The translations under genes were made by a program, and so were the position numbers. From a virus: a DNA stretch of 35,050 nucleotides. The notes beneath the pieces are model-generated. The model was not told where the DNA came from and ran no database searches. It saw nothing but the letters and a program-made list of their open reading frames with translations. The DNA lies in UHGV virus genome UHGV-0197915. One strand, 5' to 3'. This document shows positions 1-23,934 of this stretch, piece by piece (the stretch's first letter is position 1; every line of letters begins with the position of its first letter).

Positions 1-1
1 C

Positions 2-328
2 GATTATCAGAACTACGAATACGGTTATTCAGTTTCTGACCGCCAGCAGTTTGTTGGTGAGTTTACCGGTGAGCGCAAGGGGGACCTCGCGGCGGTAGCG
101 GTGAAAAATAAATTCTCCGTTGGCGACAGCCTTGAGCTGATGACGCCGCAAGGCAACATTAATTTTACCCTTGAGCACATGGAAAACGCCAAAGGCGAAG
201 CTATGCCGATAGCACCAGGCGATGGTTATACTGTGTGGCTCCCGGTCCCGCAGGATCTTGAGCTCAATTACGCGCTGCTGATGCGTAATTTCTCCGGGGA
301 AACCACGCGTAATCCCCACGGTAAGTGA
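2..328 (+). CDS. yegQ: U32-family peptidase YegQ, C-terminal part (5'-partial; gene starts before the window)
   Basis: Open frame from window start to TGA at 326-328; synteny with cyaR immediately downstream and yegR/yegS at the far end, as in E. coli. Confidence 0.75.
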   Translation, partial: DYQNYEYGYSVSDRQQFVGEFTGERKGDLAAVAVKNKFSVGDSLELMTPQGNINFTLEHMENAKGEAMPIAPGDGYTVWLPVPQDLELNYALLMRNFSGETTRNPHGK

Positions 329-363
329 TTAATTTCGATTATTTTTCCCGGATGGAAAATTCT

Positions 364-403
364 TAGAAACCGATCACATACAGCTGCATTTATTAAGGTT
401 ATC
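364..403 (+). promoter_or_regulatory. cyaR promoter region with CRP-like half-site (…TCACA) and -10-like TATCAT
   Basis: ttagaaaccgaTCACA centred ~41 nt upstream of the sRNA 5' end; TATCAT at 398-403. CyaR is known to be CRP-activated. Confidence 0.45.
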
Positions 404-412
404 ATCCGTTTC

Positions 413-499
413 GCTGAAAAACATAACCCATAAAATGCTAGCTGTACCAGGAACCACCTCCTTAGCCTGTGTAATCTCCCTTACACGGGCTTATTTTTT
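413..499 (+). ncRNA. cyaR: CyaR (RyeE) Hfq-dependent small RNA
   Basis: GCTGAAAAACATAACCCATAAAATGCTAGCTGTACCAGGAACCACCTCCTTAGCCTGTGTAATCTCCCTTACACGGGCTTATTTTTT matches the CyaR sequence as I recall it; terminator hairpin plus T-tract at the 3' end. Confidence 0.85.
478..499. repeat. attL core (22-bp direct repeat CCCTTACACGGGCTTATTTTTT), overlapping the cyaR terminator
   Basis: Identical to 33547-33568; flanking bases differ on both sides. Confidence 0.75.
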
Positions 500-540
500 T
501 GTTCTAACCTAATGAAATAAATGGATTTATTTCTTGCAAT

Positions 541-559
541 GTCCACACATTGACCACAT
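541..559. promoter_or_regulatory. Putative integrase arm-type binding sites (TGTCCACA-cat-TGACCACA direct repeats)
   Basis: Two 8-bp direct repeats ~45 bp inside attL; the same octamer is repeated at 33437-33455 at the int end. Assignment as P2-type Int arm sites rests on a consensus recalled from memory. Confidence 0.4.
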
Positions 560-563
560 CGAT

Positions 564-2407
564 CGAGTAGGAGGCGGGATCACTCCCGCCGTCCTCTCAC
601 ACCACCGTACATGCGGCTCCGCATACGGCGGTTCATGTTAACACTGGAACTGCCTCTGCTGTTCCAGCAGTGATATCAGACCCTGCCTGCTGAACCACGC
701 ATTCTTTATCGCCTGATTCATATGGCTTGACCCTGAGTTCCACCATGGCCCGTGGTTGTTGTACGCTGAGATCATCGCCCTGTCCTTACTCAGCCCCGCT
801 CTTTGCAGGTTCTTCGTCCGGGTTCCCGGCCTCTTCCACTGCCGCCACAACAGGCACCGCAGTTTCCGTTTGATCCAGCCGTCCAGCTCTTCCTGCACTC
901 CTCTGACTTCCGTCAGCCTGAAGTAGCTTATCCATCCACGCAGCACTGGCGTCAGGGCATTGATTGTCGCTTTCACTGATTTGCTCCGGTTTCCCGTGGT
1001 CAGACTGCGGACTTTCTCCTTCAGCCTGTTCACGCTCGTCAGGGCTATTTTCAGCTTCGCCTGTTTGTGCCATGTCACACTGTACCCGAGGAACTTCCGC
1101 TCCCACGGGCGCGCCACCGCGCTCTTCTTCTCATTCACCTTCAGTTTCATTTTGTTCTCCACGAACGCCCTGATGTTCTTCAGCAGATGGTCGCCCGCTT
1201 TCCGGCTGCTTACGTTGATGTTGCAGTCGTCTGCGTAGCGGCAGAAGCTGTGTCAACGACGCTCCAGTTCTTTATCCAGTTCATCCAGCAGGATGTTCGA
1301 CAGTAACGGCGACAGCGGGCCGCCCTGCGGCATGCCCGCCTGTCCTTTATCGTTCTGGCCAGACGCGTCATCAGGAGCCTGTGATCCACCCGGTCAAAGA
1401 ACTTCTCCAGATCCATATCCACCACCCACCGTTTGCCGCCCCGTATGTAACGCTGTGCCTGTTGCACCGCCTGCCATGCGTTGCGCCCCGGCCGGAAGCC
1501 GTAGCTGGAGTCTGAGAAGCTTTTGTCCACGATGGCACTTAACTGCTGCGCAATCGCCTGCTGGATAAGCCTGTCCACCACCGTCGGGATGCCTAAGGTT
1601 CTCACGCCGCCATCCGGCTTCGGGATATCCATCCGGCGTATTGCCCGCGGCTGGTAGTTTCCGTCAATCAATGCCTGCCTGACACTGCGCCAGTTCTTCT
1701 TCAGCCACGGTTTCAACTCCGCCACGCTGAGGTTATCCACCCCCGCCGCGCCTTTGTTTTCCACCACGCGCTGATAAGCCAGCATCAGGTTTTCTCTCGT
1801 TATCACCGCTTCCATCGTCAGCGGCACTTCCGCTTTCGTTTGCCCACCCGCCGCCGTGCTGATTTCAGCGCCATCATGCAGCCCTGACGGATACCGTCCG
1901 TCTCCTCTGCCGCTGGCCGCAGTTGCCTGCGCTTGTGCTTCATTAATCATCATCGGGTTCGGATGTCCTAATCACGGTTAATCATGTTCGGCCCTTCATG
2001 CTGCCGGTTTTGCAGCACTACTACGGCGTCGGCTGACTTCTGCCGCCCCATCCCGGCACCTTACGACGCCGGTAGCACACTGGCAGGACGGCAGTTCTCC
2101 CGGGGTAATTCGCGCGACTTTCCTGCTTATGCCTGTCGGCTCTACGTTACAGCGTTCCGTGTGAGTATCGGGCTTTGGTGATGTATGCCACCTTACCCCG
2201 CTGCGCCGCCTTAACCGCTTCCTGTTCGTCAGGCCAGCATTTTGCATCCGGCTTCCTTCAGATTTCACCTCGCGATGAACACCCTTGCCTTCCGCTAACA
2301 CTTCCCCTCACCGGGTGTGTGGAGGACTTTCACCTCTTAGTCGTTCTTCAGCCACCACAGTTGAAGAACAGCGCCAGTCACGGCGCTACGCGCCATGCCC
2401 GGCGCAC
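564..2407 (-). mobile_element. Group II intron (bacterial class C-like placement), degenerate
   Basis: 5' end GTGCG (reverse complement of 2403-2407) 8-9 nt after a terminator hairpin; domain V-like hairpin near 605-640; RT/maturase ORF inside; intron-free version of the 3' flank present at 33601-33620. Confidence 0.7.
638..1953 (-). pseudogene. Group II intron-encoded reverse transcriptase/maturase, disrupted
   Basis: RT domains 0-4 in ORF 1210-1953; frame breaks near 1331-1345 where ~25 aa before the xPQGGxLSPLL motif are missing; in-frame TGA at 1253-1255 before the YADD motif; maturase domain continues in ORF 638-1162. Confidence 0.75.
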
Positions 2408-2410
2408 ATA

Positions 2411-2450
2411 CAAAAAGCCCCGCAAATGCGGGGCTTTATTTATAAAAAAA
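2411..2450 (-). terminator. Rho-independent terminator (bidirectional hairpin GCCCCGCAAATGCGGGGC flanked by A/T runs)
   Basis: Perfect 8-bp GC-rich stem at 2416-2434 followed by TTTTT on the minus strand; lies downstream of ogr and the 69-aa ORF. Confidence 0.6.
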
Positions 2451-2852: not shown

Positions 2853-3074
2853 TCACATCCATTGAATTTGCTGCTGACCTGACGTTGTTGGATGCGGCGG
2901 CGCGGGTACTACCTCGCCCGATGATACGATGAAACGCTCGACTGTTTCAGTGGTCACAAACGTGCAACTGCAGTTGATGTTTGTGCACTGGTGATACCGC
3001 TCTTTTGTGGTATCAGTAAAATAGCGACTCGTGCGGGCGTGGGCGGCATGATGGCATTTCGGACAATGAAACAT
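2853..3074 (-). CDS. ogr: Ogr/Delta zinc-finger late-gene transcription activator
   Basis: MFHCPKCHHAAHARTSRYFTDTTKERYHQC…SGQQQIQWM closely resembles P2 Ogr as recalled; start placed at the Met preceding FHCP. Confidence 0.85.
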   Translation of the reverse strand: MFHCPKCHHAAHARTSRYFTDTTKERYHQCTNINCSCTFVTTETVERFIVSSGEVVPAPPHPTTSGQQQIQWM

Positions 3075-3155
3075 GATGAGGGTCTCCGGCGTATTCAATG
3101 TGTTAATTTTACTCATTTTTCACTTATAAAACAAACACATAATTAAAACACATCG

Positions 3156-4319
3156 TTAAGTTTCCTCGCTTTCATACTCCACATCAGAAACCTTAACCTC
3201 AAGCTCTAAGCCCGTCGTGAAGCCGCTCCCATTAAAGCTGTGCACCACACGGCTGATTATCCACGCCTGTTCGTCTATAACGCGCTTAAAGCCTTTCACT
3301 GCGACCGGCGTTTCAGGAAATAAATCAGCGCGGCCAGTGGCGAGCGTAATCGAAAACTCCGCCACCCCACGTTGTATCCTGTCCCACTTTGCCTGAGCTG
3401 CGCGCATGGCCTGCGCCTTTGTCGCGTAGATGGTCGTGAGTTCCAGAACATTGTCGGACTCACCAGCCATATACTCACCTTCCCGCGCTTCCTGCTCCTT
3501 TTTCTTTTTAGCCTTTGCCGATGTTTTGACGGCCTTCGGGTGCTGCAGCGCACGCAGGTGCTGCTCTTTGGGTTTGCGTTTGAGCTTCACCTTTTGCTTT
3601 TGCAGTTTCGGGTCTCTGGTGTGCAGCCATTTCGCCGTTACGCCGGTGTAAGCCTCACGGTCTGCAATGGCGAACTGATGGCGGTCGCCGTCACCGCGTT
3701 CGACGGTCATTTGCGGGATGGCCTTGCCACTGGCCGTCATCGCGCTACCGGCTTTCAGGAATAACAATTTCCCGGCTTTGACCGAAACCGCTGCCCCGTT
3801 ACGATCCGCCAGTCGGGACAAAAACGCGGCGTCGGATTCCTGAGACTGGTCGATATGCGGCACAGCAACAGATTTCAGGGTATCAGCCACGCTGGCCGTC
3901 AGTTTGTTACGCTGCGCGATAGCCTCAACAATCACCCCGAGCGTGGTGTCGTGCCATGACTGTTCGCGCCTGGAGTTCAGCGTCCCGCGAAAATCCGCGC
4001 TGCGCCCCCGGAGGGTCAGCCTGTCAGGCGCGCCCCGGTGCTCGATTTCGTCAACCGTGAAACTCCCTTTGTTTATCAGCGCCGAGCCCTGCCAGCCCAG
4101 CCACAGCGTCAGCGATGCCCCGCGTGGCGGCAGCTCAACCAGCCCGTCAGAATCATCAAGCTCGATATCAAGCTGATCAGCCTCGAATCCGCGATTGTCG
4201 GTCATGGTCAGCCCGATAAGCCGGTTGCTGAAATTCTGTGAGATATCTGCGCCATCGAGCGTGAGCATAAAATCAGGGGCAATGCGCGCCCCGGTCTGAA
4301 TGTTCATTCCCGTTATCAT
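3156..4319 (-). CDS. D: Tail protein gpD
   Basis: 387 aa at the P2 D position; overlaps the U stop. Confidence 0.8.
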   Translation of the reverse strand: MITGMNIQTGARIAPDFMLTLDGADISQNFSNRLIGLTMTDNRGFEADQLDIELDDSDGLVELPPRGASLTLWLGWQGSALINKGSFTVDEIEHRGAPDRLTLRGRSADFRGTLNSRREQSWHDTTLGVIVEAIAQRNKLTASVADTLKSVAVPHIDQSQESDAAFLSRLADRNGAAVSVKAGKLLFLKAGSAMTASGKAIPQMTVERGDGDRHQFAIADREAYTGVTAKWLHTRDPKLQKQKVKLKRKPKEQHLRALQHPKAVKTSAKAKKKKEQEAREGEYMAGESDNVLELTTIYATKAQAMRAAQAKWDRIQRGVAEFSITLATGRADLFPETPVAVKGFKRVIDEQAWIISRVVHSFNGSGFTTGLELEVKVSDVEYESEET

Positions 4320-4780
4320 CCCGCCATCCCCCCGAGCCAGTTACCGGCAGACGTGACCAGATTGTCAGCCTGCGTTTTCAGGTCGCCGTAGATGGCCGCG
4401 AGGGATTCATCCACCCGCTTAAGCGACAGGCTAAACTCGATTTTTTTAGCCGCACCGTCGCTGAATAACTCGGTGTGGTTGTGAGTCACTTTATCGATGA
4501 CATACATCCCGTGGATCATACCGGTTCCGTCAATCAGCGGCCATGCGCGCCCCTCGTCGGCCATCAGCTCGATGGCCATCAGTGACAGACGCCCGCCAGT
4601 GATTTCAGGGTAAAGCGTGCCTGACAGGGTGCGCGAGGTCTCCCCCTCCCCGAGATACTGATAAGCAGGTGGTTTTCCAATACGGTCATTTGACACCCAC
4701 CGGTAGTCCTTCGAATACTGCATTGACTGATGCGGCAGGGTGCGCCGTTCAAACACAAAAAAGCCCAGCACCATTAACAT
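4316..4780 (-). CDS. U: Tail protein gpU
   Basis: 154 aa, P2 U-like, at the P2 U position. Confidence 0.75.
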   Translation of the reverse strand: MLMVLGFFVFERRTLPHQSMQYSKDYRWVSNDRIGKPPAYQYLGEGETSRTLSGTLYPEITGGRLSLMAIELMADEGRAWPLIDGTGMIHGMYVIDKVTHNHTELFSDGAAKKIEFSLSLKRVDESLAAIYGDLKTQADNLVTSAGNWLGGMAG

Positions 4781-4793
4781 TTTTACCCCTCCC

Positions 4794-7235
4794 TCAGTCG
4801 AGTCTCATACTGGATCGCTGGCGCGCACGTTTCTCGCGGTCAAGTTTGTCGACGGCGTCACGGAGCTGGCGGTCAAGGTCACTGCCCGGCGCGACCCCGC
4901 CCTGCAGATTGATGTTGTATTCGCTTTTGCTCTGGTCGATATAAGACCGGCCTGCAGGTGCAGTGACCGGCTGATACGCCTGATACCCGCCATATCCAGC
5001 GGTCGCAAGGATATACCCGCCATTCAGGGACGCTTTATTCGCTTTCGCTGCGGTCTGGTCGAGGTCGCTGGATTCTTTTTTGATAACGCCGAGTTTTTCC
5101 AGTAGCCAGCCGACCTTGCCGCTCAGGCTGTTAAACATCTTGAGCGGCATCATCAGCGCATCAGCCAGCGCCTGACCAAAAGTAACGCCGACATTTTTGC
5201 AACTGGAGAGCGTGTCCTGCGTGGTTTTCACCGGCGCAAGCAGGTCTTTAAACCACTGGCAGACGACACCCAGCTTTTCAGCGATGGCGTCAAACACCGG
5301 CGCGAGCGGGGTAAACATGTCCCCCACCGGTGCAAAGGCGGCTTTCAGTCCCTCCACCACGCCCGAGAAGAATGCACCGAGCGGCTCCCAGTATTTGCGG
5401 ATCAGCAATGCACCGGCCACCACTGCACCGGCTACCGCCAGCACCGGCAGGCTGATTGCGCCAATGGCCGTGACAATCGCGCCGCCAACCGTACTGAAAA
5501 CCACACCGAGCACGCCAGCCGCCGCAATGATGGCATTAATCCCCATCACCACCGGCCATGCGACAAGGCCAATCCCGCCCATTACACCGATCAGCGCCAG
5601 CGCACCACCAACCACCACGCCGAGGGTGGTCGCCAGCCCTTTATTTTTCTGGATCCAGCCGTCGAGCCTGAGCACATATTGCGTGGCCGTCTGCGTCAGC
5701 TTTCGCAGTGAGCCCTCCTGCTGATCAAACAGGTCAGTGCCGACCGCCTCATAGGCTGACTGAAACTCTTTAAAGTCGCCGCCGAGGTTATCCTGCATAA
5801 CCTTAACCAGTTCCTCAGTCTTACCGTCTGAGGCTTTAAACGCGGCGGTGAGCTGGTCGAGCTTGCCGCTTGTTGCGGCGGCCATCAGCACGGCGGCCGC
5901 CGAGCTGGCCTCTTCACCGAAAATGGTTTTCATGTATTCGGATTTCTGCCCCGTTCCGAGATTGTTTTTCTCAAAACTGCGCTGCATTTCTTTCAGGATG
6001 GAAAATATCGGGCGCGTATTGCCTTTGCTATCTGACGTTTTAATACCGAGCTCTTTGATGGCGTCGTACGCTTTACCGGTTGGCGCCTGCAGGCGACTCA
6101 GAACGGCACGGCTCCCTGTACCCGCCATCGAGCCGGTGATTTTGGAATCGTGCAGCGCCCCCACCATTGCGGTGGTTTCTTCGATACTTACCCCGGCATT
6201 TTTCGCCACTGGCGCGGCATAGGTCAGCGCATCACTCATTCCATCAAAGTCGGCGGCGGTTTTGTTCATCGTCATCGAGAGAACATCACCAATATGCGCG
6301 ACTTTATCGTTAGAGAGCTGAAAAGCAGATTTCATGCCTGTCAGCAGCGCAGCGTTTTCTTCCATCGTGCGCTTGTTCGACAGCGCCATATTCAGTGTGA
6401 CCGGCGTCGCCGCCTGAATGGCCGCCGCATCGCCGCCGCTTTTGGCAATGATAATCTGCGCACCCGCCGCATCATCGGCAGAGGCAGCGGTATTATCACC
6501 GAGCTGGCGCGCCTGTTTACGCAGCGCCTGCATTTCAGGCGACTGTTTGTCGACACCGAGCACGGCCTGCAGCTCTGAGTTTTTCTGTGCAAATTCATAA
6601 CCAGGCGTCAGCAGCTTAACCCCGGCGAGGGTTCCCGCCGTCGCAATACCAACACCGGCTGCGCCAGCCGCCGCCGCGTTTCCGGCCAGTGATTTACCGG
6701 CCTGATACCGCGCTTTCACCCGGCTTAACTTCGCCTGTTGTGCGCTGACTTTCGCCAGTGCCTCACGCTGCCGATTAAGCTGCGCGGTAGTCTCACTGAT
6801 GCGCGATTTAAGCCCCCGCTCATCATTTGCCAGATTACGGGTATTAATACCGACTGCACCGAGTTCACGTTGCTGGCGCTTAACAGACTCAGTGAGGCTG
6901 TTGTATTTCGTCTGCAGCCCGTTGGCGGCACGCTTTGCCGATTCAAGCACCTGCGCCTGCGCACGCGTCGGGCGCTCGGTGTTTTTAAATTGTGTGGCAA
7001 GGGCTTGCGCTTCCTGTTTCGCTTTCTCAAGCGAATGACCGGTCACGGCAAGCTGGGCGCTGGCTTTGCGGAATCCGTCAATACGGGACGCCTGCGCATT
7101 AAGTTCGCGCAGGCTTTTTTGTGAATTGCGGATATCACCAGACAGGGATTTGCTGGCGTTCTGAATCGCTTTAAGCGGGCGGCTTGCCCGGTCAACTGCG
7201 TTCAGCAGCACCTCGATTCTGACGTTATTGCTCAT
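4794..7235 (-). CDS. T: Tail tape-measure protein gpT
   Basis: 813 aa, Ala/Gly-rich coiled-coil and glycine-zipper membrane segments typical of tape-measure proteins. Confidence 0.85.
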   Translation of the reverse strand: MSNNVRIEVLLNAVDRASRPLKAIQNASKSLSGDIRNSQKSLRELNAQASRIDGFRKASAQLAVTGHSLEKAKQEAQALATQFKNTERPTRAQAQVLESAKRAANGLQTKYNSLTESVKRQQRELGAVGINTRNLANDERGLKSRISETTAQLNRQREALAKVSAQQAKLSRVKARYQAGKSLAGNAAAAGAAGVGIATAGTLAGVKLLTPGYEFAQKNSELQAVLGVDKQSPEMQALRKQARQLGDNTAASADDAAGAQIIIAKSGGDAAAIQAATPVTLNMALSNKRTMEENAALLTGMKSAFQLSNDKVAHIGDVLSMTMNKTAADFDGMSDALTYAAPVAKNAGVSIEETTAMVGALHDSKITGSMAGTGSRAVLSRLQAPTGKAYDAIKELGIKTSDSKGNTRPIFSILKEMQRSFEKNNLGTGQKSEYMKTIFGEEASSAAAVLMAAATSGKLDQLTAAFKASDGKTEELVKVMQDNLGGDFKEFQSAYEAVGTDLFDQQEGSLRKLTQTATQYVLRLDGWIQKNKGLATTLGVVVGGALALIGVMGGIGLVAWPVVMGINAIIAAAGVLGVVFSTVGGAIVTAIGAISLPVLAVAGAVVAGALLIRKYWEPLGAFFSGVVEGLKAAFAPVGDMFTPLAPVFDAIAEKLGVVCQWFKDLLAPVKTTQDTLSSCKNVGVTFGQALADALMMPLKMFNSLSGKVGWLLEKLGVIKKESSDLDQTAAKANKASLNGGYILATAGYGGYQAYQPVTAPAGRSYIDQSKSEYNINLQGGVAPGSDLDRQLRDAVDKLDREKRARQRSSMRLD

Positions 7236-7694
7236 GATGGCTTCCGCTTCGTTGCAGCGCCTTATCGCGCCATGTCAGGAGCTCGGTCACACTCAGGGAA
7301 TTTAGCTCTGATGGCGGCCAGTGGAAGATCACCGCAATATCCGCCATCAGGTCATCGACCGACAGTTTTTCCGGGAAGGTCAGCGACCCGAAGCTGGTGA
7401 CAAAAAACCGACCACCTTACCGGCTAGTGAAATCAGGTCTGACGCATCCAGACGCGCGAGCTCGTGCTCGGTCAGTGCCGGATATGTCATGCGCGGCAGC
7501 ACCTTAATCAGCGCATCAACGTCGGAATTTGCCAGCGACGCCAGCGACACCCCGCGCAGGGTTCCCGCATTCGGTTTGGTTAAGGTGACCTGCTCAACTT
7601 TCTGCTCACCGCGCATCAGCGGGGTGTCAAAAATAACGACATTCGGATTGACGTTCTCAGTGTCAGCAACAGCAGTCTCATTGATATTTTTCAT
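7225..7694 (-). CDS. E': gpE+E' fusion produced by programmed -1 frameshift
   Basis: The -1 frame from the slippery site (minus-strand GTTTTTTG, forward 7401-7408) reads FFVTSFGSLTFPEKLSVDDLMADIAVIFHWPPSEL… to a TAA at 7225-7227, overlapping the T start. Confidence 0.6.
7380..7694 (-). CDS. E: Tail assembly chaperone gpE
   Basis: 104 aa ORF immediately upstream of T; slippery run GGTTTTTTG at its 3' end. Confidence 0.7.
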   Translation of the reverse strand: MKNINETAVADTENVNPNVVIFDTPLMRGEQKVEQVTLTKPNAGTLRGVSLASLANSDVDALIKVLPRMTYPALTEHELARLDASDLISLAGKVVGFLSPASGR

Positions 7695-7748
7695 GCGAAT
7701 TTCTCATCAGGGTAAATGACCGGCCAGCCTCACTGACCGGTTGAAGGA

Positions 7749-8267
7749 TTACAGGCCAATCGCCTTGCGGTGCTCTGCCATACGGTCGACACCGTCGACT
7801 TTCAGCACCATGTTGATCACGTCAATCTCGATGACTTCTTTGCCGTCGATCGTGAGCTGGTAATAGGCGCACTCGGTCGCCATTTTGGTTGTACCGCTTT
7901 CGCCCTGCTTGTTTTCACCGCCGTCGTATTCTTTATGACGGCCACGCATCACCACCTCGACGGCAGAAATCGCGCCGGTGTCGTCACGCTGATAAGAGCC
8001 GGTAAAACGCAGCGGCACGCTGTCAGCACCCGGTGAGGCGTACTGCGCCCACAATTCAATGTCAGGCAGACCGCCGAGCGTCCACTCAAGCGACAGCGCA
8101 TCGTCATCGAGGCCAAGGTCAACCGACACCGCCCCCGGCATCCCGCCGCCGCGATATTTCTCCAGCTTGCGGGTCAGTTTTGGCAGGGTGACGGATTCAA
8201 CAACGCCCATATAGCTGAGGCCATCGTTGAACATATTCAGGTATTTCAGTTTGCGGGGTAACGCCAT
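7749..8267 (-). CDS. FII: Tail tube protein gpFII
   Basis: 172 aa at the P2 FII position. Confidence 0.85.
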   Translation of the reverse strand: MALPRKLKYLNMFNDGLSYMGVVESVTLPKLTRKLEKYRGGGMPGAVSVDLGLDDDALSLEWTLGGLPDIELWAQYASPGADSVPLRFTGSYQRDDTGAISAVEVVMRGRHKEYDGGENKQGESGTTKMATECAYYQLTIDGKEVIEIDVINMVLKVDGVDRMAEHRKAIGL

Positions 8268-8279
8268 GCTCAGAGCTCC

Positions 8280-9473
8280 TTAGCTGTTGACCGAGTCCGA
8301 CAGGTTCGCCAGATAGGTATCGGTGATGCGCTGGCGCAGGGTCAGGTTTTCCAGCGGCGGGACGGGGGTATAGTCGTAATCGATATACAGTTTCCCCACT
8401 TTCAGGGTCGCGGTGTCGTTCGACTCCGGGTCGTACCAGCAGAAGCCGTCAACGATATAACCACTGGTTTTCAGCTCGCGGAATTTGGCATTGATACCGG
8501 AAACGATGTCGCGAATGAGGGTCGGGGTAATGGGTTTATCCATCGCCCACGCGTGCGCCTCCGCCATCGTGTCGGCCAGTACCTGCGCGGTGCGGGTGTA
8601 GTTCTCAAACAGGAAAAGCGGATCATCCGAGCAGGTACGGTTTCCCCAAAACTTGAAACCATCATTGCGGATAAGCGTGGTGACACCGGCCTGATTCAGC
8701 AGGTTGGCGTCGGTCGCCGGTTCCTGCAAATCCCACGATACTGAGGCACTGACGCCGGTCACACCGTTAACGCCAACGTTAGACAGGGTTTTATGCCAGC
8801 CGACCGTCTGGTCGATTTTGGCACGCAGGCCGAGCGCGCGCGCCGTCGCCCAGGCTGTCGCGGTCGCGTTCGCCGTGGTGTCCCATGCCAGAAAATCAGG
8901 GAAGATGACCATCAGCTCACGCTGGCTGAAATTCTCGCGGTAGTCGATGGCCTCGGAAATGGTTTTACAGCCCCATGCGCTGACATAGCCAAAGGCGCGC
9001 AGGCTCTGACAGGTGGACGCGAGTGCGGTCGCCACCTCCTGTGAATCCAGCCCCGGCACGCCGAGAATCCGTGGCTTAACGCCGGTGACGGTTTTCGCCG
9101 TCAGCAGGGCTTTCAGCCCGGTATATTTGCCGTTTTCGTCGGTGGTGCCGATGATATTAGAAATGGTCTGTTTGTGCGCCTCCTCGGGGTTCTCCGGATC
9201 TTCAATACCTTCGGCCACACGCACGGCCACGATGACCGGCTTGCACTGGTCAGCGATAGCCTGCAGGGACGCCGACAGCGTGCCCTGTTTACCGGCCTTA
9301 CCGATAGCGCTCTGCACGTTCGTAATGAGCACCGGCTCATTGAGGGGAAATGTTTTTTCGTCAGCATCGCTGGCCGTGCAGACCATGCCGATGATGGCCG
9401 TCGAAACGGTGGAAATGGTGCGCACGCCATCGTTAATCTCGATGACCTGCACGCCGTGATGATAGTCACTCAT
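8280..9473 (-). CDS. FI: Contractile tail sheath protein gpFI
   Basis: 397 aa at the P2 FI position. Confidence 0.85.
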   Translation of the reverse strand: MSDYHHGVQVIEINDGVRTISTVSTAIIGMVCTASDADEKTFPLNEPVLITNVQSAIGKAGKQGTLSASLQAIADQCKPVIVAVRVAEGIEDPENPEEAHKQTISNIIGTTDENGKYTGLKALLTAKTVTGVKPRILGVPGLDSQEVATALASTCQSLRAFGYVSAWGCKTISEAIDYRENFSQRELMVIFPDFLAWDTTANATATAWATARALGLRAKIDQTVGWHKTLSNVGVNGVTGVSASVSWDLQEPATDANLLNQAGVTTLIRNDGFKFWGNRTCSDDPLFLFENYTRTAQVLADTMAEAHAWAMDKPITPTLIRDIVSGINAKFRELKTSGYIVDGFCWYDPESNDTATLKVGKLYIDYDYTPVPPLENLTLRQRITDTYLANLSDSVNS

Positions 9474-9536
9474 CCGTTTAACTCCGTGGTTAAGGGGTGA
9501 GTGATATTTTCTGTTGTGTGGCGGGTGCGGGCTATT

Positions 9537-9561
9537 TGTCAGGGTTGGCTAAGGTCTGACA
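9537..9561 (-). promoter_or_regulatory. Candidate late-promoter dyad (TGTCAG-N13-CTGACA) upstream of FI
   Basis: Perfect 6-bp inverted repeat ~76 nt upstream of the FI start codon; the 9-mer CTGACACAA recurs in the O/P intergenic region. Confidence 0.35.
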
Positions 9562-9570
9562 CAACGACGG

Positions 9571-9598
9571 GAAAGGAAAAGGCGGGCAACTGCCCGCC
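9571..9598 (-). terminator. Rho-independent terminator after gene G
   Basis: GGCGGGCAACTGCCCGCC hairpin followed on the minus strand by TTTTCCTTTC. Confidence 0.55.
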
Positions 9599-9608
9599 AG
9601 ATGTCGGA

Positions 9609-10187
9609 TCAGACTGGCAGCGGCGGCCATTCAATATCCGGAGCATCCTCCGGCTGGATGCGGCTCAGTAAAACACGGTATTTTTTCCATGCAATGAGGT
9701 GCGTTTTTTCATCGTCGGTTGCCATCTCCAGATCAACGGAGTCCTGTAATGTCGCAACCGCAGTATTGGCCTGTTTAAGAAGCCTGTTTTTGTTGTTTTT
9801 CGCAGCCTCTGTCAATGCATTACGTGCAGCATCAGCATCATCAACCCATGTTTTACCATCCCATTTCTGCCACGGGTTTTCCGGCACAACCGGTGTTGTT
9901 CCTGCCGGATACTGACCCGGCTCGGTTATCTCCCTCTCATGACCTGTTTCGGTGTCATAGACAACCTCCCCCCGGTGGTCTTCAGTGATAGCCCAGCAAC
10001 CATTTTCAGTGTCATAAACCGGAATAAATCCGTCTCGGGTTTCCGGGGGCTTTTCACTGGTGCAGCAGGCGGGCAATCCGGTAAATGCCGGTATCAGGGC
10101 GTCACCTTTTCCAATAAATTCACAGGTGTCTGCACGAAAGTTATACACAGTGATAGTCCGGCTTTCTCCGGTCATTTTAAACGTCAT
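9609..10187 (-). CDS. G: Tail fiber assembly chaperone gpG
   Basis: 192 aa directly downstream of the tail fiber gene, start overlapping the H stop. Confidence 0.7.
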   Translation of the reverse strand: MTFKMTGESRTITVYNFRADTCEFIGKGDALIPAFTGLPACCTSEKPPETRDGFIPVYDTENGCWAITEDHRGEVVYDTETGHEREITEPGQYPAGTTPVVPENPWQKWDGKTWVDDADAARNALTEAAKNNKNRLLKQANTAVATLQDSVDLEMATDDEKTHLIAWKKYRVLLSRIQPEDAPDIEWPPLPV

Positions 10188-11872
10188 TATGCGAGTCTCA
10201 CGATATAGTTAAAGGCGATGTTTTTGATGGTGTTTTCTGCATTACCCGACGCGGCGATCGTAATGGTGTGACCGTGTGCGCCAATAGCAACGGAGTGCGA
10301 GTGTGCGCCAATCCCGACATTATGATTGTGGGCACCAATCGCCACGGTATGCGCGTGATTACCTGCAGTTGATGTTGTTTTCGTTCCCGTCGCTATTTCG
10401 TTACCGTCGGCGGCCTGTCCCCCGGCCTGATCTCCCCGGTGTACGGTAAAAGTGTGCGCATGGTTGCCGGTTGCATTAGTGGTTTTTGTCCCGTAGTCAA
10501 AGGTCGTGGTGGTTTTCGTTCCGTGGTCAAAAGCACTGGTGGTTTTCGTCCCTAAATCGGTGCTCGATGCGCTGGCACCGTGGGCGTGCGATTTAATGCC
10601 GTCCTGCTCCTGAGACAAAATAGCGCGCCCACTTGCGGGTTTACCTTTGATTGTCCAGCCCCGCATATCAGGAATAACACCCGATGGGTACACCACAGCA
10701 AGCAGCGGATACGCGGCTTTATCAAAAGTTTGTCCCTGCATGACGGCATAGCCAGCAGGAACACTGTCAGACGGCCACGCAACGGGAGCGCCTACCGGAA
10801 AAACATCATCAGGCGTCCACGGTGTCCATGCGCCTGTTGAATACTGGCTGCGCGAGTAGCTCCGGGAGCTGTTATAAACCCGGTATACCTGAGTCACTCC
10901 GGCATTTTTATAAATGACCAGCGTCCCGGCGTTATTTTCAGGGTAATGTCTGGCGGCTGAGGTATTAGAATTCGCTGGCTGAAAGTAAATACCCGGCGTT
11001 TTAAGGGTGTCTAAATCCTCCGTTATCAGCCCAATAGCCTGGTCGTCGAAAATATCCTGCGAGGTGACACTGGTGTCAGCATTCAGGGAGTGTCCGTTAA
11101 TTTTGCGCGAGGAAGGAACGCGGCCATCAGCATTATCATTCGCCGCTTTCACCGCTTTTGGCGTTGCGGCGAGCGTCTCAGACACGCTGTCGATGGCGCT
11201 ACTGAGCTGAACAATCCCTTTCTGCGCCGTGGTCGCGTCCTGAGCCGAGTATTTACCTTTCGCAAGGTCATACGCCGCCTTAACCGCTTTCGGTGTCGCG
11301 GCGAGCGCCTCAGACGTGCTGTCGGTCGCACTGCTTAACTGCGTGAACCCTTTTTCTTTCAGCGTGGCGTCAGGATGGCGGCGGGACTGCTCATGCTCTG
11401 CGAGTTTGTCGTCGACATAATCCTGCGTCGCCATCACCAGCGTGGTATCGATGGACAACTCGACCGTGTCGATATCACTCACCATGATCACCATACGCAG
11501 CGTCTGCGCACGACCTGATCCTTCCGCCAGCTCGGGTTTGTAGCTTTCGGCCATATTGCCGACCGCAATCAGCGTGCCGGTGTCATCGTAAAGCCCCATT
11601 TCACGCAGCCAGAAACCGCCGGTCTCCGGGGGGATCACCAGCTCCGCCACGACATAATTTTTATGTTTTTTGTCCTGGCTGATTTTGTTCAGGACATGAC
11701 GCCAGACCTCATTGACGAGTTTTGTCTGGCTGGCGTCCGGTTCGGGCAGTTTTCCGCCGCCGTCCCCGACGGCCATCACAGCAAAATTGACTTTCTTCCC
11801 GTTCGGGAGCGTCGCCGCCGCCAGTTTTTCCGCACCGGCTCGGGTGATAACGGTTTTATATTTCACTGTCAT
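10187..11872 (-). CDS. H: Tail fiber protein gpH
   Basis: 561 aa; internal duplicated [11 protein letters not shown] segments; C-terminal His-rich GxHxH repeats. Confidence 0.85.
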
Positions 11873-11883
11873 TGTGTTCTCAC

Positions 11884-12414
11884 TTATCCGGGGTAAACCG
11901 TGATGATGTCGCCGTCCCAGGTCAGGGCTCCGGTGAAGAGATAACCCGGTATGTCCTGGATAATATTCAGGCCAATAAGATGGCGGCTGGCTGGCTTTGC
12001 ATCGGCAATCAGCCTTTCCATTTCGTAATACATTTCCTCGGTGATACCGGTCTCCAGCACGCCGATATCAAGGCGAAACGTGCCCGGGGGGTCGTTCGTC
12101 TCCCACCACTCCGTCACGTTAATCAGATACCCGAGCGGCTCGACCACACGACGCACCGCACCTATCGTCCCTTTATGCGCATGGATAAACCACGTGCTGC
12201 GGATAACCTCGCGTTTGGTTTCTTCCGGCCAGCTCTCATCCCAGCGATCAACCGAAAACGCCCAGGCCAGCCACGGCAGCAGATTTGCGGGGCAGTTGTC
12301 AGGGTTCCATAGACGACGCAGCGGGACGGGCGTATTTTCGATATCCGCGCAGGCGCGCGCCGCCGCCACCTCAAGCGGCGACGAGCCCACCGGCAGCAGA
12401 CGAGTATCACTCAT
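11884..12414 (-). CDS. I: Baseplate protein gpI
   Basis: 176 aa at the P2 I position. Confidence 0.8.
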
Positions 12415-13315
12415 CGTTGCCCCCGATGTTTACGCTGTAAGCAGTGCAATATGACGCCTGTGTCTCATTGAGTACGATGTCAGCGACCGGCGCGACAAGT
12501 TCGACACGCTGCACCCCCTCGACGTGAAGCGCGGCATAGATGGCAGACTTGCGGATATCGCGCCCGAGCCGGTGCTGCGCGTTGATATAAGCCTGCAGCT
12601 TCGCTTTTGCCGCACTGAGCACCGGCTCGCTTTCGGGGCCGGGATAAAGATAAAGCGCGGCATCGATGGTGTAGTCGACAATGACCGCCGACTGCACGGT
12701 CACGCGGTCAGCAACCGGCCTCACATCCTCATCGTTGAGAGCATTACGCACCACGGCGAGCAGTTCCCCGGATGCCGCGCCGTTATTCTCCCGGGACAGT
12801 ACCGACACGGTCACGCAGGCAGGCTGCGGGCTGATAACAGAAATATCGGCGACCCGCCCGTCAGCACTGCGGCCATGAAACTGATACGCACCGGTCGACC
12901 CGGCCACGCTCATTCCCTCAAAAGCCTGTTGAATTCGCAGACGGTAATCGGTGTCCGATTCCATGACGGCAGGCGTTGGCGGCAGCGTGGTCTCATCAGC
13001 AGGCGTAATAACGAGACGCTCAACATTGTAATTTGCGCCGAGGTTATCAAGGTCATGACCGGCAGCGTAAGCCAGCATCACCGCCCATGCCGACTCATTC
13101 ACCCGCTGACGCCAGATAACCTCCCGATAAGCATTTTCCTGCAACAGCTTCACAATCGGCTCAGATTCAAGCGTCAGCGTACGCGCTACCGCGTCCTGTT
13201 GCTCTTCGGGATAGAGTGAGACGAGCGTCACCTTTCGCTCTGTCAGGATGGTTTCATAATCCAACTCTTCCACAACATCAGGTGCGGCGAGCTGGCTCAG
13301 GTCAACAATAGCCAT
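12407..13315 (-). CDS. J: Baseplate assembly protein gpJ
   Basis: 302 aa at the P2 J position. Confidence 0.85.
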   Translation of the reverse strand: MAIVDLSQLAAPDVVEELDYETILTERKVTLVSLYPEEQQDAVARTLTLESEPIVKLLQENAYREVIWRQRVNESAWAVMLAYAAGHDLDNLGANYNVERLVITPADETTLPPTPAVMESDTDYRLRIQQAFEGMSVAGSTGAYQFHGRSADGRVADISVISPQPACVTVSVLSRENNGAASGELLAVVRNALNDEDVRPVADRVTVQSAVIVDYTIDAALYLYPGPESEPVLSAAKAKLQAYINAQHRLGRDIRKSAIYAALHVEGVQRVELVAPVADIVLNETQASYCTAYSVNIGGNDE

Positions 13316-13320
13316 AACGT

Positions 13321-13668
13321 TTAACTCAGTGGAAGGGTGATAGAAAAAGGCTGGCCTGATGCCGAACGCGTGCCGGTCATATCGACGTACATCGCGCCGT
13401 CATCCTCTCCGCGTTCAACGGTGATGGTCGACAAACTGACGCGCGGTTCCCACCTCTGGATCGCGGAGTAGCACGCGGCCATAATCTGCAGACGCAGCGC
13501 CGGGGTCTGCGGCTGGTCAATCAGTGCAGACAACAGCGAGCCATATTCGCGGCGCATGACGCGCGAGCCCACTGGCGTGACCAGAATGTCGCGCACGCTT
13601 TGCCTGATGTGCTCAACTTCAGAAATACTGAGGCCGGTCTGGCTGTTCATTCCCAGATAACGCACCGT
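13321..13668 (-). CDS. W: Baseplate protein gpW
   Basis: Start chosen at MTVRYLG (ATG overlapping the V stop by 1 nt); ~115 aa as in P2 W. Confidence 0.75.
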   Translation of the reverse strand, partial: TVRYLGMNSQTGLSISEVEHIRQSVRDILVTPVGSRVMRREYGSLLSALIDQPQTPALRLQIMAACYSAIQRWEPRVSLSTITVERGEDDGAMYVDMTGTRSASGQPFSITLPLS

Positions 13669-14309
13669 CATTTGACCCCCTTCGTCCAGTTTCCGCCCGG
13701 CTCCACGCCACCATGATCGTGGGCATCGACCTGCACGCCGTTTGAGGTAAATTTCCCTTCGGTGTGCTCGATGTTCCCCGACATCGTCCCGCCTTTTTTC
13801 ACTTCGAGCGTGCCGGTGATGAGCTTGTTGGTACACACCACCTCGGGAGTATCGAGGGTAATGCGGGTTTCGGCTTTCACCAGCACCACCGGCACGATGG
13901 CGGTAATGGACTCCGACGCGGTAACGTCGGCGGTTTTAATACCGGATACGGTGAGCGCCCCGTTTTCGGGTTCGTACTCGATAACCACCCCGTCAGGAAA
14001 AGTGACGTGAAACGCATCGGACGAGGCCGACGGCGCAGGATGGTCATCAGAGAAAATGCCGGGCAGCACAAAGGCTGTGTCCAGCTCGCCACCAATGGCA
14101 AGAATGAGCACCTGCTCGCCAACAGAAGGAGCCCACCACACCCGCGAGCGGCCGGCGCGGCAGGTCAGCCAGTTAAGCCAGGTGGTTTGCATCCCGCCGG
14201 TCTGTACACGACAAAGCCCCTCGACGGGGTCGACGTCGGTCACAATGCCGGTGCGGATAAGGTTGCGGATCGCCCGAGCGATTTCCTGTAAAGAATTTAA
14301 ATTATTCAT
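13668..14309 (-). CDS. V: Baseplate spike/assembly protein gpV
   Basis: Start chosen at MNNLNSLQEIARAIRN (213 aa); the longer ORF upstream looks like read-through. Confidence 0.75.
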   Translation of the reverse strand: MNNLNSLQEIARAIRNLIRTGIVTDVDPVEGLCRVQTGGMQTTWLNWLTCRAGRSRVWWAPSVGEQVLILAIGGELDTAFVLPGIFSDDHPAPSASSDAFHVTFPDGVVIEYEPENGALTVSGIKTADVTASESITAIVPVVLVKAETRITLDTPEVVCTNKLITGTLEVKKGGTMSGNIEHTEGKFTSNGVQVDAHDHGGVEPGGNWTKGVK

Positions 14310-14572
14310 GTGGAAAGGATGCCGACTGGAAAGGCTAGTGGCAATCAAGTGGAGTTTTATGGGAGATGAAACAACAATTATCAGCTTTAAAATATCAGTA
14401 TAATTCATCCCATTAGATTAATGAGAGCCACATAAAGGATTTATCAAATAGCAAAACTTAGAAATGAAATAAATCTCATAGACATTTCATCATGATATAA
14501 AATTATTTTCCGAACTCTTACCAAAGCAGATATGGGGCTAAATTATCAAACAGCCCCACGAATATTAAAACA

Positions 14573-15154
14573 TTATTTTCCACAAACCATATTATCTATC
14601 GCGGCCATATAGGATACAAACAGATCTACATAACCACTTACGTCAGTGAGACTAATATCATTTGCATTGTCGTTATGATGAATAATGTTATTTCTCTTTA
14701 CAACCACTGCATTCACAACATCCTTATTCGCATTAAATTCCGCCGAATTCAAAAGATTAACACCCAAATAAGAAAATGCCTTAATCGTCTTGTAAGGATT
14801 ACCAGATAGGCTATCCGACACCTCACTTTTATCAACCTTTAAATCAGCATCTATATATTTCAACTCCTTATCTTTAACATCTTTTTTGACTCGCCAAAGC
14901 AAAAAATTGTGTGGCAAGCAGGCTGCTTTAAGCCTGCGATTGATGGTATCGCAGTGCCATGTTGCAACCTCAGTCAAATACGACTCTAAATAAGTGCAGA
15001 GTGTAATAAGATACGATTTAACAAAAAAATTAATGTTCTTATTGAAGAATTCATTTTCCTCAAGGATAGCCTGTTGCTCCGTCTCCTTAATAATTTCTTT
15101 TAAGGATAAAAATAATGAACGATATCCATCATAGTATTCAGTATTTTCCATCAA
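14573..15154 (-). CDS. HEPN-like protein (RNxxxH motif), predicted RNase-type effector
   Basis: 193 aa, AT-rich; KRNNIIHH matches the HEPN Rx4-6H signature; overlaps the upstream DUF262 gene by 17 nt. Confidence 0.5.
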   Translation of the reverse strand: MMENTEYYDGYRSLFLSLKEIIKETEQQAILEENEFFNKNINFFVKSYLITLCTYLESYLTEVATWHCDTINRRLKAACLPHNFLLWRVKKDVKDKELKYIDADLKVDKSEVSDSLSGNPYKTIKAFSYLGVNLLNSAEFNANKDVVNAVVVKRNNIIHHNDNANDISLTDVSGYVDLFVSYMAAIDNMVCGK

Positions 15155-16187
15155 TAACTTCCTTAAGAAGTGCCACCCAACTAGCCCTACGCTTCATCAC
15201 CGAACTCTTATTCTGTAGCCCACCTGATAAAGTTTTTTTGAACTCAGCACTTGAACAAAGAGTAAACCAAGCATTCCGTATTTGTTCGGACTTTTCATTT
15301 ACAATATCATCATTTAACTTGCCAATTGTAGGCATTAAAATGTCATAATGAACTAACCCTTTACGTTTTCTCCTAACTGTAGGGTTTGTAAATACATCTT
15401 CACCAAATATTTTTTCACACTTAGATAATGATGTTTTGAATCTCTCCCTCATAATATTCAGTTCATCATCTTTTAAGTCTGAAAATTTTTCCATATGATC
15501 ATCCAAGAATTCTTTCAAGGAGCTATCAAAGTAATCAAAAAAGTTATCTTCATAAAATGCAAAAAAACGCAAAACTTGTTCGTCTGGCTCACGACTATCT
15601 CTTTTTACTGTAGTTGTTTCCGCCAAACCAAAATTTTTAATGGCATCAATATTACCTAACTCTTCTAATAATTCATCAAACCCTCCCGGATATAACGCAT
15701 GTCTTATTTCTTGGTCAGAAAGTTTAACTGCCCCCTGATTGAGTCTAGAAAATATCTCTCTTATTAATTTTTTGGGATTTTCTTTTCTTAGAACAATGCA
15801 TCTTATTGTTGTCGACTCTAACTCTGAACGTAGAGATCCTAATTCAGAAAACTTTTTCCCTTCAAGCTCTTTAAATGTAGTCATTCCCTCCAAAGCGAAC
15901 TCGTCATCAAAAAATTTCTGTATTGTGGTTAATCGCTGAACACCATCAATTACAATATGATTGCCGCTATCATCTTCTGCAAAGTAACAAGATGGAAGAG
16001 GAATACGCATTAAACAAGATTCAATGAATTTTGAAGATCGCAGCCATCCGTCCTGATCCCATTTGTACTTTCTTTGAAAGTCTGGATTCAGTTTTAGTTT
16101 GATGGGATTGGACTTCATCCTAGAACATAAAGTCTCAAATGGATAATCTATGGGGAATAAATTCAATGTTTTATCATCGTTAGACAT
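15138..16187 (-). CDS. DUF262 (ParB/GmrS-like NTP-binding) domain protein
   Basis: 349 aa; N-terminal PDFQRKYKWD … IDGVQRLTT motifs characteristic of DUF262; AT-rich cargo gene between S and V. Confidence 0.6.
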   Translation of the reverse strand: MSNDDKTLNLFPIDYPFETLCSRMKSNPIKLKLNPDFQRKYKWDQDGWLRSSKFIESCLMRIPLPSCYFAEDDSGNHIVIDGVQRLTTIQKFFDDEFALEGMTTFKELEGKKFSELGSLRSELESTTIRCIVLRKENPKKLIREIFSRLNQGAVKLSDQEIRHALYPGGFDELLEELGNIDAIKNFGLAETTTVKRDSREPDEQVLRFFAFYEDNFFDYFDSSLKEFLDDHMEKFSDLKDDELNIMRERFKTSLSKCEKIFGEDVFTNPTVRRKRKGLVHYDILMPTIGKLNDDIVNEKSEQIRNAWFTLCSSAEFKKTLSGGLQNKSSVMKRRASWVALLKEVIDGKY

Positions 16188-16322
16188 GCTTCAATCCTTG
16201 TAAGTAAAAGCTTAAAAAATCAACGAGGTAGCAGACAACAACAATATTTACCATTTTTTATGATTAAGGTCAAAAGGTCGGTAAGCTAGGATTCGTCTTA
16301 TGAGACTTGCAACCGTAAATAG

Positions 16323-16769
16323 TCAATTTAGATGTTCAATAACCAATTTTTCAATCAACAAATTGTCTCTAAAGTCAACACCAAGCAACTGCCGTTCTGG
16401 GTATTGCACGTCCTGAGCATGTGGGTTTGGCCGGTCTTTAAGTCCGAGCTGATGAATCTGAGCAATGCGTTGCACCTTGCCGGTAAACTCGACCACCGCT
16501 GCATCATCGCGGCCTCTGGCTTTCATGTAGCGGTTCGTTCGCAACTTCTGAAACATCGTCCGCTTAATACGCCCTTTCTTCGCTCTGAGCGGCTGGCGTT
16601 TTCGCGCCTGATACGGCGTGCCATCAGGCGCTTTTTGCTGTTTGATGCGTTGCTGTTGCGATCTGCGCATTTGCTTTGCTATTTCAGCGGCCAGCTTGCG
16701 CCGACCCGCCGGTGATATTGCCGCAATCAGTCCCGCCAGTTTGTCATCAAAAGGTTTAAATTCATTCAT
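16323..16769 (-). CDS. S: Tail completion protein gpS
   Basis: 148 aa at the P2 S position. Confidence 0.8.
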   Translation of the reverse strand: MNEFKPFDDKLAGLIAAISPAGRRKLAAEIAKQMRRSQQQRIKQQKAPDGTPYQARKRQPLRAKKGRIKRTMFQKLRTNRYMKARGRDDAAVVEFTGKVQRIAQIHQLGLKDRPNPHAQDVQYPERQLLGVDFRDNLLIEKLVIEHLN

Positions 16770-17229
16770 CCCATTTGCTCACCAGCTCACCATTGATATA
16801 CAGCTCAGTCGGTCGCGTCATCGGCTCGGGTAATGGAGGCTCAGGCGCGTAGCTAACGTGCAGCGCGCCGTTTTCGTCCCTGACGAGGGTGCGCTCGGTC
16901 AGTTGCAGGCTGATACTGATATCAACATTATCCCCGTCGTTTAAATCCATCTGGAATCGATAGCCCTTTTTGCGCCCCTCATCCAGCGTGCAGATATCCG
17001 GCTGGTTCTCTCGCAGCCATGCCGCCACCGGCACAAAAATCAGGTCAGGGTCGCCAACAAAATCGCAGACGATCACATTCAGGGTGTAGTTCTTTTCGTG
17101 CGACAGCGAGGCCGCGAGACGCGCATCGATATTTCCCTCATCGGCAAAGATACGCATCATTTCGGGGTTGTTTTTTAGCTGTGGTACGGCGTCAGTGAGT
17201 GCCTGGCGCAGGCTTTTCATTTTCTGCAT
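16762..17229 (-). CDS. R: Tail completion protein gpR
   Basis: 155 aa at the P2 R position. Confidence 0.8.
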   Translation of the reverse strand: MQKMKSLRQALTDAVPQLKNNPEMMRIFADEGNIDARLAASLSHEKNYTLNVIVCDFVGDPDLIFVPVAAWLRENQPDICTLDEGRKKGYRFQMDLNDGDNVDISISLQLTERTLVRDENGALHVSYAPEPPLPEPMTRPTELYINGELVSKWDE

Positions 17230-17482
17230 CGATTTTATCCTGGCAGTCTTTGATGGTTTCGACCTTTATCGCGCAGGCGGTGAGCGCGTGCTCAAGCCTG
17301 CGAATATCGGCACTCAGGTCGCCGTTAGTCGTGGGCTCGCTTCCCGGCATCGGGCAGAGGCTCACCTTCGGGCAGGCGTTGTAAACAATGACCGGCGGAG
17401 ACGCAGCCGGTGCGGGTGTGCAACCGGCGCACAGCATCAGGCAAATCAGCGCTATACCAGCGGCGCAAATCCTCGTTTTCAT
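17192..17482 (-). CDS. lysC: LysC (o-spanin, Rz1-like lipoprotein) embedded out of frame in lysB
   Basis: MKTRICAAGIALICLMLCAGC lipobox signal; Pro-rich; overlaps the lysB 3' end in another frame. Confidence 0.55.
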   Translation of the reverse strand: MKTRICAAGIALICLMLCAGCTPAPAASPPVIVYNACPKVSLCPMPGSEPTTNGDLSADIRRLEHALTACAIKVETIKDCQDKIDAENEKPAPGTH

Positions 17483-17750
17483 TCATCAGCCTCGTTATGG
17501 TTTGTTCGCGCCTTGCCGCCAGCTCACCGGCGGCGTTCAGCTCGTCACTGAGCCTGACCTGCGCAGCTTCATTCGTCCTGGCGATTCGCTGCGATACGGC
17601 AAACTGATTTTTCAGCATGCCAATCGTCGTCTTTTGCTCGCTGGCGACCCTGTTCGCTTTTTCGAATGATCGGGATAAATTTGCGTTGTCATGACGCAGC
17701 CACAGCACCACGGCGAGCAGCCCGGCCAGCAGAATAATCAGCACTTTCAT
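17325..17750 (-). CDS. lysB: LysB (i-spanin, Rz-like)
   Basis: Start at MKVLIILLAGLLAVVLW (N-terminal transmembrane helix) followed by a coiled-coil region. Confidence 0.7.
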   Translation of the reverse strand: MKVLIILLAGLLAVVLWLRHDNANLSRSFEKANRVASEQKTTIGMLKNQFAVSQRIARTNEAAQVRLSDELNAAGELAARREQTITRLMNENEDLRRWYSADLPDAVRRLHTRTGCVSAGHCLQRLPEGEPLPDAGKRAHD

Positions 17751-18256
17751 TGCATCCCCTTCACGCAGTAAGCCCACTCCCGATCGCGTCGGTTTTCCAG
17801 CCCCCGGTTTCGGACACCCTTCACATACACCCAGCGGGTGAGCTGGTCGCACGCCTGCCACCACTGATGGCGTTTGATATACGAGACCAGCGTCGAACGG
17901 CAGGCCGCGCCGGTTCCCACGTTAAAGGCAAAACTGACCAGCGTGTCATAGACGCGCGGTGGCATATCCACCGGCACACAGACCGCGAGCCGTTGCTCAA
18001 CGTTGAGCACATCCGCAACGAGGTTTTCCGCCGCGCGCTGTTCGGTAATATCCCCTTTCGGGACGACACCGGCAGTGTGACCAATGCCCGACGTCCACAC
18101 TCCCGCGCTGCACTGGTAAGGCGTCAGGCGACACCCTTCGAGGTCAGCAATCAGCGCCAGCCCCTCGGGCGAGGTGTTAAGCAGACGAAAGTCAGGCACC
18201 AGTGCCGCCAGCGCCAGCACGGCGGCCACACTGCAGCGTTTAATGATTGAGCTCAC
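17747..18256 (-). CDS. K: Endolysin (lysozyme family) with N-terminal SAR-like hydrophobic segment
   Basis: CSVAAVLALAALV hydrophobic N-terminus followed by EG…GVWTSGIGHT, resembling P21-type SAR lysozymes as recalled. Confidence 0.75.
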   Translation of the reverse strand: MSSIIKRCSVAAVLALAALVPDFRLLNTSPEGLALIADLEGCRLTPYQCSAGVWTSGIGHTAGVVPKGDITEQRAAENLVADVLNVEQRLAVCVPVDMPPRVYDTLVSFAFNVGTGAACRSTLVSYIKRHQWWQACDQLTRWVYVKGVRNRGLENRRDREWAYCVKGMQ

Positions 18257-20011: not shown

Positions 20012-20014
20012 GGC

Positions 20015-23933: not shown

Positions 23934-23934
23934 G

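Follow-up and report, generated by a model that had tools for sequence, protein, structure and literature searches.

The 3′ end of the small RNA gene cyaR is already known as an attachment site of P2-type phages and is the documented preferred attB of P2; this preferred site in Escherichia coli is the one which we take to be locI. The E. coli W genome paper (PMC3032704, Table 2) gives "cyaR RNA" as a P2-type insertion site and places three elements there, Wphi2 in strain W, ogr-D′ in K-12, and P2*B in strain B. The same paper describes P2-like elements inserted at rybB, and phage or island integration at the 3′ end of an sRNA gene has been reported for the sdsR locus in Salmonella (PMC3333887). 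In our literature search, PMC3032704 was the only paper with an explicit statement of the link between cyaR and P2.

Here, we describe an occupied cyaR locus in UHGV virus genome UHGV-0197915 (35,050 nt, referred to below as the window), in which positions 413 to 499 are the cyaR gene. We are confident that a P2-family temperate phage integrated here by Int-mediated site-specific recombination at its canonical site, the cyaR 3′ end. The details that are new in this locus are minor ones: a 22-nt variant of the attachment core, a hairpin on the attP side of the core, a relic of a P arm in the empty site, and an intron inside attL. The host genes, cyaR, and the two attachment cores are arranged in the window as follows.

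1..328, plus strand: 3′ end of yegQ (trhP), the host gene upstream of cyaR (RefSeq; identical DNA in E2865, KV7, and MG1655)
363..405, plus strand: cyaR promoter, with a CRP-like site and a −10 element TATCAT at 400-405 (identical to the MG1655 upstream region)
413..499, plus strand: cyaR sRNA gene, intact (MG1655 annotation mapped to the window, Rfam RF00112, fold, and terminator scan)
478..499, plus strand: attL core (22-bp identity with attR; inside the annotated 27-nt attP core of P2)
33547..33568, plus strand: attR core (22/22 identical to the attL copy)
33727..34044, minus strand: yegR, host (RefSeq annotation of identical DNA)
34459..35050, plus strand: 5′ part of yegS, host (RefSeq annotation)

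The sequence CCCTTACACGGGCTTATTTTTT is present exactly twice in the window, at 478-499 and 33547-33568, both times on the plus strand. The exact match stops at 22 nt, with no lengthening on either side; if two mismatches are allowed, the similarity covers 28 nt (472-499 and 33541-33568). In cyaR, the left copy takes in the final three bases of the loop, all of the descending terminator arm, and UAUUUUUU. The initial annotation had claimed that a 22-bp repeat overlaps the descending arm of the CyaR terminator and its T-tract and that the same core sits next to int at attR. Both statements hold, as the two exact copies are unique, the terminator layout confirms the placement of the left one, and int (32449-33462) ends 84 bp before the right one. 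All 22 nt are contained in the 27-nt core annotated in P2, and for the other 5 bases of that core, the match is confined to the host side. To the left of the core, the host-type TCT (475-477) stands at attL and the phage-type ACG at attR, and to the right, a phage T at 500 corresponds to a host A at 33569; therefore, strand exchange took place within 478-499. The prophage boundaries can be set precisely, at 500-33568 or, equivalently, at 478-33546.

Comparison with an unoccupied cyaR locus had been proposed as a check, and here the result was unambiguous. Excision in silico (300-499 joined to 33569-33868, that is, deletion of 500-33568) yielded 500 contiguous nucleotides that are 100% identical in many E. 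coli chromosomes, where they lie between yegQ/trhP and yegR, and so restored a known, uninterrupted locus. This rebuilt empty site was found in one place in 4559 of 5426 complete E. coli genomes, a count that may include short K-12-type remnants, as nearby pieces were joined by the search tool. The attR junction (int, core, and yegR flank) was found in one piece in approximately 807 to 819 of the 5426 genomes (∼15%).

The insert (500-33568; 33,069 bp) is a complete-looking P2-type prophage, and its order, attL-ogr-...-cox-C-int-attR, is that of the P2 prophage.

2414..2437, minus strand: intrinsic terminator of the ogr/late transcript (terminator scan; positional homologue of the terminator annotated in P2)
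2853..3116, minus strand: ogr, late-gene activator (Pfam Ogr_Delta, 2.5e-20)
3156..24942: P2-type tail, lysis, head, and packaging genes (Pfam and PHROGs)
28103..30475, minus strand: replication initiator of the gpA type (phrog_91, 1.5e-299)
31645..31920, minus strand: cox, excisionase/Pc repressor (Pfam Phage_Cox, 8e-42)
32053..32352, plus strand: C-type immunity repressor (Pfam HTH_3; same position as P2 C; the start is a putative one in an open reading frame that runs from 31969)
32449..33462, plus strand: tyrosine integrase of the P2 Int type (Pfam Int_N and Phage_integrase; PDB 5c6k, 1.6e-168)

The structural set comprises gpD, tape measure, sheath, fiber, baseplate, capsid, scaffold, terminase, and portal proteins, and 60 to 70% of the structural region aligns at ∼77% identity to Peduoviridae (Salmonella phages PHB48, SEN1, and FSLSP004). 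Int is identical to P2 Int at 284 of 336 positions (85%). Several further open reading frames were seen in the element. A Ser/Thr protein kinase gene (443 amino acids; Pkinase, 1e-28; PADLOC mad6-/PD-T4-6-like) overlaps the gene of a PP2C-type phosphatase (236 amino acids), and the pair, at 24995-27027 on the minus strand between the portal and replication genes, occupies the position of the P2 old/tin defense hotspot. Between ogr and the terminator/attL end lies an open reading frame of 69 amino acids (2541-2750, minus strand; WP_029392285.1, hypothetical in strain KV7), which was without a match in Pfam and PADLOC and may be a moron at the prophage end. Among the tail genes, an open reading frame of 349 amino acids (15138-16187, minus strand) matches only PHROG families of unknown function (phrog_2598) and may be cargo in a second variable region of P2. 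The tail fiber gene (10187-11872, minus strand) contains three tandem 30-nt units (GTGGTTTT[T/C]GT[C/T]CC...) at 10479-10568.

The two arms flanking the cores align with the Int, IHF, and Cox sites annotated in P2 (NC_001895), which marks them as putative arms of a P2-type attachment site. On the attL side, the P arm is directly followed by a group II intron.

500..562, plus strand: phage P arm, IHF-site homologue plus Int arm-type site (∼535-562) (alignment with annotated P2 sites)
562..2407, minus strand: group II intron of 1846 nt with a split reverse transcriptase (RT)/maturase open reading frame (Rfam RF02001, RF01998, and RF00029; Pfam RVT_1 and GIIM)
33430..33527, plus strand: P′ arm, Int arm-type repeats (GTGTCCACACAGTGTCCACAG) plus Cox-site region (alignment with annotated P2 sites)

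The intron ends were read from the sequence, with the 5′ GTGCG at 2407 and the 3′ end at 562. On one side, the intron is separated by 9 nt from the T-run that belongs to the ogr-side terminator, and on the other, it directly adjoins the Int site of the P arm. The RT/maturase open reading frame is split into 1210-1953 and 638-1162; a deletion of 73 nt (at ∼1335-1342) sets the intron apart from its counterpart inserted at this site in E. coli KV7, and copies with ∼99% identity are carried by both chromosomes and plasmids of E. coli. In the Pfam search, the RT/maturase matched no endonuclease domain. Insertion after a terminator together with an RT/maturase of this kind presumably places the intron close to class IIC introns, which it resembles. 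The intron is outside the att mechanism; lying 62 bp from the core, with the P-arm site intact, it could affect arm architecture or expression on the ogr side.

The strongest rival explanation concerns not the origin of the repeat but the current status of the element, for which it is a genuine rival: the repeat could be the record of a past integration by a prophage that no longer excises, with a dead att core. Searches of sequence collections give this some weight. The rebuilt attP had no close DNA match in the phage collection (P2 was reached via an Int protein search), and an exact search for the attP junction of this lineage in IMG/VR and the JGI metagenome contigs returned no excised form, the IMG/VR search giving only two prophage attR junctions. 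Such collections, however, seldom contain the free form of any particular P2-type phage lineage. The degenerate intron next to the P arm points in the same direction, as does the vertical spread of the same prophage type in some clones, for example, in many ST167-like genomes, with junctions that are 97.5% identical. Against a locked-in element stand the int, cox, C, ogr, and gpA genes and all large structural open reading frames, which are full length, the retention in both arms of counterparts to the annotated Int, IHF, and Cox sites of P2, and the two cores, which are still 22/22 identical. Taken together, we consider it unlikely that the prophage has lost the ability to excise. Mitomycin C induction followed by PCR of the junctions had been suggested as a check in the initial annotation. 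P2-type (C/Cox) phages are not SOS inducible, and mitomycin C is therefore poorly suited to this prophage.

Two further claims of the initial annotation, that the phage supplies a functional sRNA 3′ end at attL and that the CRP-type promoter of cyaR is intact upstream, were compared with K-12 and with an unoccupied strain. Positions 1 to 499 of the window, including the cyaR promoter, do not differ by a single base from MG1655 or from the unoccupied strain E2865 (100% identity), and the first mismatch is base 500; the promoter is thus base for base that of K-12. A CRP-like site, TTAGAAACCGATCACA, lies at 363-378, centered at approximately −42 (pattern scan), although a scan of the whole window for the CRP motif gave 21 matches versus 13 expected, and the motif by itself is not above chance. 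The cAMP-CRP dependence of cyaR comes from the literature cited in PMC3333887. Rfam model RF00112 (CyaR/RyeE) has a full-length match at 411-496, with 100.7 bits versus a gathering score of 47, and the score is the same in the window, K-12, and the unoccupied strain, as is the fold (−19.8 kcal/mol; z, −3.0). The seed hairpin is at 449-462. The terminator, with an ascending arm at 464-474, a loop at 475-480, a descending arm at 481-491, and a T-run at 494-500, retains its 11-bp stem, 6-nt loop, and U-run after integration and is identical to that of K-12 through base 499. These comparisons bear out the first of the two claims as far as sequence, Rfam score, and fold can indicate, in that the phage would supply a 3′ end equal to that of K-12, and they show that cyaR is, at the sequence level, undisrupted in such lysogens.

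It is conceivable that integration alters CyaR in a subtle way, with a 7-U tail or the new downstream context changing termination, Hfq binding, or read-through into the prophage. There are 7 T's after the CyaR stem at attL versus 6 in unoccupied loci, attL reading TTATTTTTTT-G where the unoccupied loci read TTATTTTTT-A, and the CyaR terminator has been reported to be intrinsically leaky, a reporter construct showing 41% read-through (PMC9765468), so that downstream context might matter. On the other hand, the RNA is identical through the U-run, and T-runs of both 6 and 7 occur here among host strains as well. We consider an effect of this kind improbable. With 7 instead of 6 T's after the stem as the sole difference, normal synthesis and termination of CyaR would be expected. 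The third possibility, that the repeat is a chance match or the target site duplication of a transposition-type insertion, has practically nothing in its favor and was rejected, as chance alone would produce ∼4e-5 exact 22-nt pairs in 35 kb with the composition of the window, 22 bp far exceeds transposon duplications, no transposase gene accompanies the P2-type tyrosine integrase gene of the element, the empty site is exact, and the core equals the experimentally defined attP core of P2.

The repeat, the exact empty site, and the P2-homologous Int and arms thus uphold the main proposal of the initial annotation, integration into the 3′ end of cyaR, and suggest the following course of events. 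The attP of the incoming phage would have contained the same 22 nt that end cyaR, comprising part of the loop, the descending arm, and the U-run. Strand exchange with the chromosome would have regenerated an unchanged cyaR at attL and left a duplicate core at attR, 84 bp downstream of int. As attP equals attB over these 22 nt, recombination anywhere within them would regenerate cyaR unchanged at attL. CCC-TTACAC-GGG (478-489) is the sole dyad in the core, which suggests that the crossover occurred there and makes TTACAC(G) the probable overlap region. With a crossover in the dyad, roughly GGGCUUAUUUUUU of CyaR (approximately its last 13 nt) would physically be phage DNA, and the number of phage bases at the CyaR 3′ end would depend on the crossover point inside the 22 bp.

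The window phage brings its own structure to the other side of the core.

33519..33561, plus strand: terminator-like hairpin, followed by a T-run at 33563-33568 (fold)

In this hairpin, phage sequence to the left of the core pairs with the descending arm of the core in an interrupted stem of 16 bp (−21.6 kcal/mol; z, −3.05), whereas the equivalent region of P2 folds no better than shuffled sequences (z, −0.09). On the folding model, C-int transcripts could end at the hairpin, in attP as well as in attR. More speculatively, the hairpin and its U-run may imitate the CyaR 3′ end in its Hfq-binding architecture and serve as an int terminator or as an Hfq-bound 3′ fragment. Two attP types are found at cyaR in E. 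coli, the P2 type with an attB identity of 27 nt and the window type with 22 nt; the latter carries Int WP_000111938.1 and is also present in many ST167-like genomes.

The host DNA to the right of attR also contains a P2-type sequence.

33597..33624, plus strand: relic of a P2-type Int P-arm site in the host flank (22/28 identical to the P2 P-arm site; nhmmer E value, 9.5e-4)

This relic is also found in unoccupied E. coli loci. Together with yegR, it is part of a 798-bp segment (33569-34366; GC content, 40%) that reaches from the CyaR U-run to the upstream region of yegS and is absent in Escherichia sp. E1V33, where the CyaR U-run abuts the yegS leader. The "unoccupied" cyaR locus of E. coli could itself be the scar of an ancient P2-like prophage, a reading that we put forward tentatively and rate as somewhat short of even, the segment being without independent phage homologues. 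If it is true, the 3′ half of the CyaR terminator has been phage delivered in all E. coli since before the species diversified, and present-day P2-like phages integrate in tandem with the old scar. Separately, we considered yegR and the 798-bp island as phage cargo and rejected this, as only two phage records contain the island and independent support is lacking; at least one of the two, vB_EcoM-720R8, carries it just past int, as expected if the record runs into the host flank. At 33632-33664, with the P-arm relic on one side and the yegR 3′ end on the other, lies a perfect inverted repeat of 11 bp (AGCACGATGCC ... GGCATCGTGCT) that has no T-run. A second AATCTCCCTT motif (33620-33629) lies just before the inverted repeat and resembles the left part of the 27-nt att core of P2.

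Beyond E. coli, 101 cyaR loci were surveyed, with one genome per species. In 11 of them (L026, L043, L061, L069, L076, L088, L095, L105, L112, L090, and L009), a P2-type P arm or a relic of one follows directly after the CyaR U-run. These include loci of Citrobacter, Enterobacter, Buttiauxella, Scandinavium, Escherichia albertii, and others, and 5 of the 11 have ogr and gpD within 2.2 kb. Judged from these arrangements, cyaR appears to be a P2-type attB across the family. In each of these species, the P arm or relic is preceded by the form of the CyaR terminator arm found at that locus. A footprint of phage traffic on the terminator stem was also looked for and not found: imperfect stems, defined by mismatched or wobble pairs, occurred in 7/11 loci with a P arm or relic and 41/90 loci without one, which is no meaningful difference.

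Beyond correct annotation, the importance of this locus is slight. It is a textbook case of an attB at the 3′ end of a structured RNA gene, a gene that the integrating temperate phage restores. The variant core with its hairpin, the P-arm relic, and the use of cyaR across genera are modest leads on whether repeated phage traffic has shaped an sRNA terminator.

The closest relative with annotated attachment sites is P2, whose 27-nt attP core, AATCTCCCTTACACGGGCTTATTTTTT, corresponds to window positions 473-499, that is, to the 3′ end of cyaR. As in P2, the same host gene end is used in the same orientation, int adjoins attR, and ogr adjoins attL. Unlike P2, the window phage shares 22 nt with attB and reads AAACG instead of the AATCT of P2 just to the left of the core, and the ∼25 nt to the left of its core are unrelated to P2 and form the strong hairpin with it. 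Further differences are structural genes that are only ∼77% identical to those of PSP3/SEN1-like Peduoviridae and the presence of a group II intron. The cryptic prophage PR-X (ogrK, yegZ′) of MG1655, a P2 remnant, has the same attL, and its annotated start lies within the last 18 nt of cyaR; PR-X in K-12 is a 0.6-kb remnant, whereas the prophage in the window is full length, with int and attR. In Klebsiella phage ST16-OXA48phi5.4, whose record ends before attL, Int is 76% identical and a different core, likewise made up of a hairpin and a T-run, lies beside a diguanylate cyclase gene. More generally, the locus resembles other integrations at the 3′ ends of tRNA, tmRNA, and sRNA genes, in which attP duplicates the structured RNA 3′ end so that the gene survives, and here, too, a stem arm and the terminator tail are part of the core. 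Compared with tRNA targets, the terminator of an Hfq-dependent sRNA takes the place of the acceptor/T-arm, with no difference in principle.
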